A stretch of 37,827 nt of DNA from Candidatus Jordarchaeia archaeon (lineage in GTDB: Archaea > Asgardarchaeota > Jordiarchaeia > Jordiarchaeales > Jordiarchaeaceae), in assembly GCA_029856435.1 (NCBI GenBank), contig JAHQXB010000043.1, positions 1-37,827 on the forward strand. The letters are read 5' to 3'. The notes under the pieces were generated by a model. It searched no databases, was not told where the DNA came from, and saw only the letters and a list, made by a program, of their open reading frames with translations. Of the stretch, positions 24,455 through 26,377 are shown piece by piece. Positions within the stretch are counted from its first letter, which is position 1; each line of letters starts with the position of its first letter. The position numbers and the translations under genes were made by a program.

Positions 24455-25564
24455 CTATAGGCGGACGTCTCTGAGAAGAGTAATAATATTGTTTCTTCCC
24501 CGAGGCTCCCTCTTAATGAAGCCCTTCTTCTCCAATATGGAAAGCGTGATGCTCACCTTAGCTTTACTATAATTGGTGGCCTTCTGAATCTCCTTCTGCG
24601 TGACACGCTTATTTTCAGATGAAGCGATAACTCGGAGAATCTCAATCTCTGCCTCGTTAAGCAGGGTGAGAGAAGTGTCAGTCACCGTTTCAACCAGTTT
24701 TGTTCTATGATAAAGATAGAAAACAAACATCCCAATAACAAGACCCAACAAAAAAATAGCAACAAAAAGTGAGGGACTAGAAGAGGTGGGGTATAAAACT
24801 GGAAAATAAAGTATTTGTGGTATCAGGGCCGCATCTGAGAGTTGGTATCGTATCACAAAAAGCTCGGTGCTCCCCTCATCTAATTTTAAGCTCCACTGGA
24901 AAAGTAAAGAGGAACCATCTGTAAAGTTTAAACTATCTATGGGATAGAGGGGGTCGACACCGGAATACAAAAACCTCTCAGGCGGAAGCTTCACCCGGAA
25001 AACTATATTTTTCATGTTAACATCCGCTTTGAGCATGTAAGAAAACTGAGTGTAACTGGTGGTAAGTGAAACCACCTGGGAAGTATCAAAATCAACAGTA
25101 AAATTATAAAAAGAATTGGGCTCAAGATTAGATACATTCAGACGAACAACAGTTTTGGTAGACAAAGTATCAATTATCGTGTCATAAAGCGGCCCAGTTT
25201 TATTTTCCACCCGGAGGTTTATGATATTGGTTAAACTGAAGGAAACGTTTAACTCATCTATAGGTGTGGCTCCCGTATTATTTGCGGAGAAAAAGCAAGA
25301 GAAATGAGCAGTATCATTATCATAAAGGATAATATTAAACTCCACATCAACATACTCAAACGAAGAAGGAGACTTAACAGTCAAGAATGGAGAATCACAG
25401 TAATGATAAAGAGGAGAAATGCAAAAAGAACTGTTGTGAAATTGTCCATAGGAAAGATATGAAAAACAGGCGAAAAGTAAAACAAGTATCACAATTAAAA
25501 AGAATGCTCCCTTTAGACGAGTATACCCCACTGGACTTTTTAATATAGGAACACTAGCACACAT
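24455..25564 (-). CDS. Membrane-anchored winged-HTH regulator (COG2512-like): N-terminal TM/signal, extracellular beta-rich glycosylated domain, TM, cytoplasmic wHTH (start uncertain; ORF extends to 25672)
   Basis: Hydrophobic FFLIVILVLLFACF; many N-x-S/T sequons; TM LFVAIFLLGLVIGMFVFY; C-terminal LNEAEIEILRVI...VTQKEIQKATNYSKAKVSITLSILEKKGFIKREPRGRNNII. Confidence 0.8.
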   Translation of the reverse strand: MCASVPILKSPVGYTRLKGAFFLIVILVLLFACFSYLSYGQFHNSSFCISPLYHYCDSPFLTVKSPSSFEYVDVEFNIILYDNDTAHFSCFFSANNTGATPIDELNVSFSLTNIINLRVENKTGPLYDTIIDTLSTKTVVRLNVSNLEPNSFYNFTVDFDTSQVVSLTTSYTQFSYMLKADVNMKNIVFRVKLPPERFLYSGVDPLYPIDSLNFTDGSSLLFQWSLKLDEGSTELFVIRYQLSDAALIPQILYFPVLYPTSSSPSLFVAIFLLGLVIGMFVFYLYHRTKLVETVTDTSLTLLNEAEIEILRVIASSENKRVTQKEIQKATNYSKAKVSITLSILEKKGFIKREPRGRNNIITLLRDVRL

Positions 25565-25900
25565 TAAAACACCGTCAAGCGAACTTACTCCTATTCTACA
25601 TTTCCTGCAGATTACTTTAAGTTTTACCAATAGGGCACAAAAATAAATAACCGCCATTTTTGACCAGCCCATTGTGAAGCATTACAAACACGAAAACAAG
25701 CATGGTCCAGCAGTGAATCTATGGTTTACTAAAGGTGATTTTCCTGCTTTGTTTCTTCCCACCGCCATCCTAAAAGGTGCTGTTCTTATGCTTCTCGACC
25801 CGCTAGGCTTAAAGTACCATTTGCAAACTATATTTGAAAATATCCCCTTCAAACAAGACCCTGAAGGAGCTTTGAATTAAAATTAGAATCGGAGGGAATA

Positions 25901-26277
25901 GTGACCTCCTCCACTATTTGAAAATGGTGGCTTCCAAGTTTCGTTCACCATTTCCCGCTTGTCGCCAAGGCGGCTTTTTATGGATGCTTGCGAGGTTGCA
26001 CCTCTACCTTCAAGGCTTTAACGGTACACAGACCAACGCCTCTCAGGCTTATCTCCCTCTTCCTTGTGCTTCAGGGCTTGGTCACCTAGTGAATGGTACT
26101 CCAGTCAAGACCCTATGCCAGACGTCGAGACTAGCATTCGTTCGTTGCCGAACGTATCGAAGCCCTTTTTGGGTATCCCAAGCTTCATCCGCACAGCGTG
26201 GCTTGGGTTTCTCCGATTGTTCCACTTGTGGAACATTTTGATATTCTGTTCACTTCGCCGGCTTTACCTCGATTCAT
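25901..26277 (-). ncRNA. Putative highly structured RNA (omega-RNA-like scaffold) filling the IS605-derived element
   Basis: Consecutive stems (plus-strand coordinates): 26218-26235 (8 bp perfect), 26177-26207 (7 bp outer), 26139-26154 (6 bp, GCAA tetraloop on the minus strand), 26115-26137, 26073-26114 (enclosing 26082-26092), 25992-26004, 25963-25972. No credible ORF. Confidence 0.55.
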
Positions 26278-26315
26278 CCACGTTTGAAAACGTTGGTCTT
26301 CTTGAGGTGGTCTTT
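25901..26315 (-). mobile_element. Non-autonomous IS200/IS605-family element (PATE-like), 415 bp, lacking tnpA and tnpB
   Basis: Minus strand: target-like TTTAT (26320-26316), AAGA at +16..+19, left hairpin CCAACGTTTTCAAACGTGG (26296-26278); right end GAAG plus hairpin CCACCATTTTCAAATAGTGG (25930-25911), terminating in GGAGGAGGTCAC. No terminal inverted repeats and no target duplication, as expected for HUH (Y1) transposons. Confidence 0.85.
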
Positions 26316-26377
26316 ATAAAGGGTTCGTTGATAGCTGGTAAATTTTGGGAAAGTTTTTGGTGGGATCAAGTAATAAA

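Follow-up and report, generated by a model that had tools for sequence, protein, structure and literature searches.

A protein-free IS200/IS605 mini-element with a putative TnpB guide-RNA scaffold in an Asgard-group archaeon

The locus

An intergenic element of 415 nucleotides (nt) with sharp ends runs on the minus strand from position 26315 to 25901 of contig JAHQXB010000043.1 (assembly GCA_029856435.1) of Candidatus Jordarchaeia archaeon, a member of the Asgard group; the whole stretch of DNA that was analysed, hereafter the window, comprises 37,827 nt. Genes in the same orientation flank the element: it starts 63 nt past the stop codon of an open reading frame (ORF) of 379 amino acids (aa) and lies 229 nt ahead of an ORF of 405 aa. 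Its G+C content is about 50% compared with about 40% in its surroundings. A first-pass annotation had described the element as an intact-ended, protein-free derivative of the IS200/IS605 family whose guide and cleavage tetranucleotides match each other and which could still be mobilized in trans, a reading that our results largely uphold and extend. Its features, in the order in which they occur on the minus strand, are as follows.

26316..26320, minus strand: TTTAT, the target and left cleavage motif (core TTAT), in flanking DNA outside the element
26267..26315, minus strand: left end, made up of a 19-nt linker ending in AAGA, an imperfect hairpin, ATGAATC and GAGG
26115..26266, minus strand: relic of the 3' coding region of tnpB, with no open frame and with several hairpins
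26073..26114, minus strand: pseudoknot ("nexus"-like) hairpin AGGG.CU...AG.CCCU with an inserted sub-hairpin; its homologue lies in the tnpB tail of autonomous relatives
25935..26072, minus strand: extra structured spacer of about 140 nt, from the pseudoknot hairpin to the right end
25901..25934, minus strand: right end, made up of the guide GAAG, a hairpin and the 10-nt tail AGGAGGTCAC
25881..25900, minus strand: 3' flank, which, going by the established layout of TnpB omega-RNAs, would become the guide segment if transcription crosses the right end; in the empty site it makes up the right half

The element starts at 26315 with AAAGACCACCTCAAG (first bases AAAGACC). AAGA occupies element positions +16..+19 (26300-26297), immediately 5' of an imperfect left hairpin, CCAACG-TTTTCAAA-CGTGG (26296-26278), and GAGG, located 3' of ATGAATC, pairs with CCTC at 26307-26304 to form an outer left stem. 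This outer stem covaries among the elements described below (CCTCAA/TTGAGG, TCGCAA/TTGCGA, ACGCAA/TTGCGT and GGAGCAAG/..TTGCTCC). At the other end, GAAG lies at -34..-31 (25934-25931), immediately 5' of the right hairpin CCACCA-TTTTCAAA-TAGTGG (25930-25911), and the 10-nt tail that follows (25910-25901) finishes in the cleavage motif TCAC (25904-25901). The two hairpins are nearly identical in sequence and have the same, direct orientation, and the termini AAAGACC.. and ..GGTCAC are not inverted repeats of each other, such that the element has no terminal inverted repeats. TTTAT, both guides and the terminal TCAC all occupy exactly the minus-strand positions given in the first-pass annotation.

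Copies, empty sites and distribution

The host genome (3.54 Mb in 181 contigs, 97.8% complete) contains six copies of the element, which we designate family A. The five other copies, on contigs C88, C34, C113, C84 and C168, are full-length and 83-88% identical, and all six have the same first and last bases within unrelated flanks, which excludes the possibility that they are parts of a larger duplicated segment. TTTAT precedes every one of the six, and all end in TCAC apart from the copy on C113 (TTAC), so that the further copies foreseen at the outset exist with a single deviation; five of the six retain intact tetranucleotides for both cleavage and guiding.

The insertion event is documented by related species. 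Both window flanks align, at 73-82% identity, with three congeneric species (G001, G003 and G004) that are without the ~415-470 intervening bases at the same intergenic site. These empty alleles, with the sequence ...AATGAACTCTTTA(G/A)TATT..CTCTGA... and the target motif CTTTA(G/A), align base for base with the window flanks joined where TTTAT meets TATTCC, with no target duplication. The insertion was therefore precise, duplication-free and later than the separation of these species. The junction is the one that had been predicted for an empty allele and, since sequence conservation stops at both 25901 and 26315, the ends of the element are true junctions.

Beyond the host genome, searches of five congeneric genomes and of 35 more distant relatives failed to recover the element; one of these 35 (G018) shares the left end only, and the other 34 gave nothing. 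When four genomes that share the left end were searched with the whole element, the match was limited to that end. A pattern for the right module had no match across the genome collection, and a pattern for the left end had none in viral contigs. In metagenomes, a right-end pattern identified three loci, comprising two mini-elements (L091 and L093) and a third locus, L092, which was rejected as a relative because it is a chance match within a GC-rich gene.

Two sister families of protein-free elements occur in the same genome. Family B, of about 310 nt, has copies on C160, C79, C68 and C48 together with right ends on C152 and C161; it shares nt 1-213 of the element, carries a different right module that ends in GGTGGTAGTTCAC, and is preceded by TTAT in all copies with an intact 5' end. 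Family C, a third protein-free IS605 mini-element of about 280 nt in about 10 copies (C36:17032-17310 and C127:4840-5118, with others on C21, C26, C78, C88, C136, C158, C69 and C140), has a different hairpin (CCCCTTCC-GAAA-GGGAGGGG) with unchanged TTTAT, AAGA, GAAG and TCAC, and retains a legible tnpB tail (..YDRDLNACVNIA..) as well as a TATA-like CTTAAATAA right after its left end. Families A, B and C together amount to more than 20 copies, far more than the intact tnpB genes of this genome. In orientation relative to the upstream gene, six of ten copies are co-oriented, and this bias is not significant.

Guide and cleavage pairing

The ends of the element conform in detail to those of IS608 from Helicobacter pylori. 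In IS608, cleavage on the left occurs at TTAC, in flanking DNA 19 nt 5' of the foot of the hairpin, and cleavage on the right at TCAA, within the element and 10 nt 3' of its hairpin; the guides AAAG and GAAT, just 5' of each hairpin, pair with these cleavage sites, with A+16 contacting T-3 and A+17 contacting T-4 (PMC3201880, PMC5934647). Extending this scheme, guide base 4 would face cleavage position -1, and in terms of cleavage (C) and guide (G) positions the canonical pairs are C(-4):G(2), C(-3):G(1) and C(-1):G(4). The spacings of the element equal those of IS608, with 19 nt separating the left hairpin from its cleavage site and 10 nt following the right hairpin, whereas the motifs themselves differ, with TTAT/TCAC and AAGA/GAAG in place of TTAC/TCAA and AAAG/GAAT. 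All three canonical pairs are nonetheless Watson-Crick at both ends (T:A, T:A and T:A for TTAT/AAGA; T:A, C:G and C:G for TCAC/GAAG). The complementarity first noticed at the last position thus extends to every canonical position, and the fit between guides and cleavage sites is one of compatibility at the level of sequence. The arrangement lies far beyond chance, because the five further copies share the exact ends and TTAT stands at the 19-nt spacing in all 15 loci of other genomes described next.

Autonomous relatives

A scan for the exact left-hairpin pattern returned 15 loci in nine other genomes, whose hosts are Hadarchaeota, Candidatus Sifarchaeum, a "Hermod" archaeon, Bathyarchaeia, Methanococcoides, Methanolobus and two bacterial metagenome-assembled genomes; at each of the 15, TTAT occurs 19 nt ahead of the hairpin. 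One of these loci, L077 of an uncultured archaeon (CBFDVL010000024.1), is a complete element with left end, tnpA, tnpB and right end, in which tnpA lies on the reverse strand (Pfam Y1_Tnp, 137 bits; TnpB, 72.8 bits). L077 has in common with the element the TTAT target, the AAGA and GAAG guides, a right hairpin ending in TCAC, the pseudoknot hairpin GGGCTG..CAGCCC and the same left hairpin, here CCACCG-TTTTCAAA-CGGTGG followed by ATGAATTG. It differs from the element in carrying tnpA and tnpB, in its right tail of 8 nt (TAGTTCAC), in its pseudoknot (GTGAAC/GTTCAC) and in an interior that is unrelated outside the tnpB tail. Other loci have tnpB only (L074, G031 and the Hadarchaeota copies) or are gene-free (the Sifarchaeum mini-elements). 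The left-end sequence of the element thus occurs in elements that carry tnpA and tnpB; its right-end variant, with the AGGAGGTCAC tail, was seen only in protein-free elements.

The host genome itself retains possible traces of an autonomous partner. One end of contig C15 (C15:19895-20026) displays TTTAT and the same left end, followed by the last 27 codons of a reverse-strand tnpA (63% identity to the TnpA of L077 over 27 aa, E 3.7e-6), and the start of C152 (C152:1-123) consists of the last ~30 codons of a tnpB-like frame and a family-B right end. These two contig ends look as if a single autonomous element had been split between them, although no sequence overlap joins them; an unassembled gap between the two may therefore hold the autonomous partner. 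Together with L077, the C15 fragment supplies the tnpA-bearing element with the same hairpins that the first-pass annotation had recommended looking for.

The interior

The element is protein-free, as had been proposed. No reading frame is conserved among the copies, whose longest frames differ in both frame and strand because of indels, and the longest open frames have no Pfam match. What the interior contains instead was recognized by way of family B, in which the sequence downstream of nt ~120 can be aligned, up to the end, with the 61 C-terminal codons of the TnpB of L077 (tblastn, 40% identity, E 7.8e-7). This alignment runs from the second CxxC through the RuvC-III motif to the stop and includes an identical block of 20 nt, GGGCTGTCGTGAACCAGCCC. 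Because family A does not differ from family B in kind until nt 213, with 85-92% identity across the interval 26115..26266, a decayed tnpB tail makes up the first half of its interior as well. Neither BLASTN nor a nucleotide hidden Markov model detected in the host genome a tnpB with a 3' end similar to the interior.

The tail of tnpB is the region that encodes the guide RNA of TnpB, termed omega-RNA. A hallmark of this RNA is a pseudoknot that links a stem-loop to the 3' terminus of the scaffold; it is conserved across characterized systems and was essential for TnpB cleavage in the system tested. In the element, the loop of the pseudoknot hairpin contains the hexamer GTGACC (26085-26080), which is perfectly complementary to the last six bases, GGTCAC (25906-25901), the 3' arm within the right tail. 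The same loop/3' end relationship varies in concert among elements, as follows.

GTGACC/GGTCAC: family A and the metagenomic mini-elements L091 and L093
GTGAAC/GTTCAC: family B and the tnpB-bearing L077 and L074
GTCAAC/GTTGAC: the tnpB-bearing G031
GTAACC/GGTTAC: the family-A copy on C113, a compensatory double change; its sister on C84 has the loop change only
GTGAGC/GTTCAC: family C, with a G.U pair that works in RNA only

Of the RNA evidence, this covariation of the pseudoknot between elements is what stands firm. The homologous hairpin in the tnpB tail of the autonomous relatives is GGGCTG-..GTGAAC-CAGCCC, into which family A, by comparison, has a 22-nt sub-hairpin inserted. The spacer from pseudoknot hairpin to right end is likewise longer in family A, at about 140 nt vs about 70 nt in family B and the tnpB-bearing relatives; one of the hairpins in it, at about 25973-25953, has a GGCGAC loop. 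The last ~120 nt of the element are common to the protein-free metagenomic L093 (nhmmer E 1.7e-13), in which both the GGCGAC-loop hairpin and the right hairpin show compensatory changes. These features suggest that the interior encodes an enlarged TnpB guide-RNA scaffold of roughly 300 nt, which a TnpB would use.

One consequence is that the last bases of the element appear to be triply constrained, as the cleavage motif for TnpA, as the partner of a DNA guide and as an arm of an RNA pseudoknot. The tnpB-only element L051 (G031:C1:408140-411171) ends in GTTGAC rather than GTTCAC, its loop is GTCAAC rather than GTGAAC, and its right DNA guide is CAAA vs GAAG, with C rather than G as the first base; the C>G change at -3 is therefore matched in both the RNA partner and the DNA guide.

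Folding statistics add a less direct line of evidence. Against shuffled sequences, the whole element folds with z = -4.0 on the minus strand and z = -1.9 on the plus strand. The substitutions in predicted helices that are shared by several copies all keep the sense-strand pairs (seven of seven, G-C to G-U or A-U to G-U), and helix-breaking substitutions occur only as singletons. Selection on master copies followed by neutral decay would fit this pattern, although the result is only suggestive because the structure was predicted from the same sequences.

Interpretation and alternative readings

We consider it probable, at roughly 0.85, that the element is a protein-free IS605 mini-element that has lost tnpA and nearly all of tnpB and that keeps both ends together with the omega-RNA scaffold tail. 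It may also be mobile in trans at present and may be used by a TnpB. In the mechanism we envision, the Y1 transposase TnpA of an autonomous relative would bind both hairpins on the single-stranded top (minus) strand and place TTAT and TCAC through base-pairing with AAGA and GAAG. The enzyme would then excise a single-stranded circle, reseal the donor scarlessly and re-insert the circle 3' of another TTAT. A transcript of this copy, situated as it is 63 nt downstream of a co-oriented gene, would read past the right end (25901) into the flank, and TTTAT would double as the target-adjacent motif (TAM) for the cognate TnpB. Following the homing model of Meers et al., on which this step is based, that TnpB would act in trans to cut the element-free allele (TTTAT plus flank), and recombination would restore the element. 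More speculatively, the family could constitute a "guide-only" parasite, a ~300-nt omega-RNA cassette that borrows TnpA to move and a TnpB made elsewhere to home back into emptied sites, or a set of orphan guides put to some other use, such as programming a remaining TnpB-like protein against chosen sites; we view this extension as tentative and rather unlikely.

A number of observations weigh against the interpretation as a mini-element that is still competent. This copy departs from the family consensus in its left hairpin, where a bulged A replaces the sixth pair, in its outer left stem (T>C) and in its right hairpin (one G>A mismatch), and the T-run found behind the left end of other copies is missing; the description "intact-ended" needs qualification for the hairpins and outer stem of this copy. 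The family-A copies are 12-17% diverged with no identical pair, and there is accordingly no sign of recent transposition. Neither an intact cognate tnpA nor an intact tnpB of the L077 clade is assembled in the 97.8%-complete genome, and the best candidate, the one clearly intact tnpB (on C43), has 27% identity and other ends. The remaining Y1 genes (C166:58-560 and C58:2-420) belong to a different element with TTTAC, not TTTAT, as its left flank, and the sole tnpA-bearing relative found has a right tail of 8 nt as opposed to the 10 nt of family A. At the RNA level, an archaeal promoter could not be assigned for this copy, Rfam reports no family in the window at gathering thresholds, and ordinary helices show no significant covariation among the host-genome copies, a test that is uninformative because the copies are too alike.

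As a separate observation on the C166/C58 element, its left end is related to that of the present element, with the hairpin CCCACGG-TTTTAA-CCGGGG followed by ATGAATTG, and both of its copies are cut by contig ends.

The alternative that best survives accepts the same identity and holds that this copy and its family are dead fossils, immobile, with an unused RNA, and decaying in an intergenic region. The divergence of the copies, the three deviations in the left end and the one in the right hairpin, and the lack of an intact cognate tnpA or tnpB would all be expected of a fossil, as would the finding that, among singleton substitutions, those that disrupt predicted helices are about as frequent as those that preserve them. 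Yet the seven shared substitutions that are pairing-compatible on the sense strand (with the same reservation that the structure derives from these sequences), the compensatory double change in the C113 pseudoknot and the intact cleavage and guide tetranucleotides of five copies speak against a fossil. Moreover, the assembly breaks exactly at insertion sequence copies, at the C15 end and the C152 start, and the autonomous partner may therefore be merely unassembled. On balance we judge the fossil reading unlikely, while regarding it as the most serious competitor.

Far less probable is that the locus is a host-domesticated gene for a structured non-coding RNA of the HgcC type, with a cellular role and vestigial transposon ends. 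The unusually stable minus-strand fold (z = -4.0) would suit such a gene, as would the outcome of a permissive Rfam scan, in which the only match was a weak one to HgcC (RF00062) at 25892-26004, with 20.9 bits, short of the gathering score of 50. Furthermore, overexpression of a PATE-derived RNA and of a sotRNA, both discussed below, was reported to affect growth of Halobacterium (PMC4615843). However, the element is missing from all five congeners and from 34 of 35 distant relatives searched, it occupies six unrelated sites, and it displays insertion polymorphism and copy-by-copy decay, all as expected of a selfish element and not of a conserved host gene. The HgcC matches themselves lead back to transposons. 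Matching family-A copies score 17.8-28.9 bits, all below the gathering score; the mini-element L091 (Ga0190319_1004313, about 1845-1958 minus), in which the tnpB tail is clear and the AGGAGGTCAC end recurs, reaches 42.9 bits; and HgcC also matches weakly at the 3' end of a tnpB of the host genome (C160:22484-22622). HgcC therefore looks like the tnpB-tail and right-end RNA of one IS605 subgroup, in agreement with the link drawn by Gomes-Filho et al. between HgcC, tnpB-overlapping sotRNAs and a PATE-derived RNA (PMC4615843). Other structured RNAs that had been suspected, namely RNase P RNA, signal recognition particle (SRP) RNA, an IscB-type upstream omega-RNA and an intron, were set aside when Rfam returned nothing at gathering thresholds, and ARAGORN predicted no tRNA or tmRNA in the window.

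Finally, another kind of small mobile repeat, either a repetitive extragenic palindromic (REP) sequence or REPIN mobilized by a REP-associated tyrosine transposase (RAYT) or a miniature inverted-repeat transposable element (MITE) with terminal inverted repeats, might be brought to mind by the Y1 chemistry of RAYTs and by an unrelated ~107-nt repeat with inverted-repeat-like ends in the same genome, but this reading has a negligible chance of being correct and is already refuted by the anatomy of the element, with its direct rather than inverted hairpins, its lack of terminal inverted repeats and target duplication, its asymmetric ends (19 and 10 nt), its tnpB-tail relic and its omega-RNA pseudoknot.

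Relation to known systems

Among characterized transposons, the element most resembles IS608 and ISDra2, the type members of IS200/IS605 single-strand "peel-and-paste" transposition, with which it shares imperfect subterminal direct hairpins, cleavage spacings of 19 and 10 nt, 4-nt guides 5' of the hairpins, the absence of inverted repeats and of target duplication, and presumably scarless excision. Unlike these, it has neither tnpA nor tnpB and possesses an extra outer stem around the left hairpin, and its autonomous relative carries tnpA on the opposite strand. This last arrangement is the divergent, IS605-type layout of ISfinder descriptions.

Protein-free elements with IS200/IS605 ends have been described as palindrome-associated transposable elements (PATEs) in Haloquadratum walsbyi (PMC3119063) and in Geobacillus stearothermophilus and Clostridioides (PMC10055086, bioRxiv 2023.11.20.567912). 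Like the present element, PATEs are multicopy and presumed to be moved in trans, and Meers et al. state that they "often encode omega-RNAs", which a TnpB would have to use in trans. The element is a PATE, and both the class and its omega-RNA-bearing members were already known from haloarchaea and bacteria; new are only the Asgard-group host, which kinship labels assign to the phylum of Candidatus Sifarchaeum, the particular motifs and the enlarged scaffold. In comparison with other PATEs it is long, at 415 nt, its pseudoknot hairpin bears a sub-hairpin, its spacer is about twice the usual length, and no cognate tnpB is present in the assembly.

A further group of relatives comprises HgcC (RF00062), the haloarchaeal sense-overlapping transcripts (sotRNAs) or omega-RNAs, and the PATE-derived VNG_R0052 (PMC4615843). 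These RNAs, like that of the element, come from the 3' end of tnpB and have a right-end hairpin with a UUCA-containing loop followed by a ..GAGGAGGUCA tail; in the case of HgcC, the resemblance is limited to the last ~110 nt of the element.

With six copies, three empty sites, an autonomous relative and matching guides and cleavage sites, the locus shows a protein-free IS200/IS605 element of an Asgard-group archaeon that is bounded on all sides. Such elements are overlooked by ORF-based annotation and can be mistaken for novel RNA genes; the long-known HgcC RNA family seems to fall within this class as well. Their interior, rather than being arbitrary cargo, would be a TnpB guide-RNA scaffold that can be recognized through its covarying pseudoknot. 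For TnpB biology and engineering, a naturally enlarged scaffold and terminal bases held under a triple constraint may be modestly useful. The understanding of how IS200/IS605 elements work is unchanged by a finding that is solid but ordinary.

Neighbouring gene and an unrelated repeat

The downstream gene for a 405-aa protein (window 24455-25672, minus strand) was entertained as a TnpB or IscB and rejected, since its only Pfam matches are to a C-terminal winged helix (DUF7343 best, MarR); the N-terminal ~330 residues have no Pfam match. The unrelated ~107-nt repeat mentioned above yields 117 BLAST matches in the host genome, in more than 100 places, and its ends (GGTGATGTAGA.. and ..TCTACACC) resemble terminal inverted repeats, as judged by eye only. 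It has inserted inside the family-A copy on C168 (C168:2223-2326; locus L006, about 1801-1904) and adjoins the 5' end of a family-B copy at C68:1018-1084.

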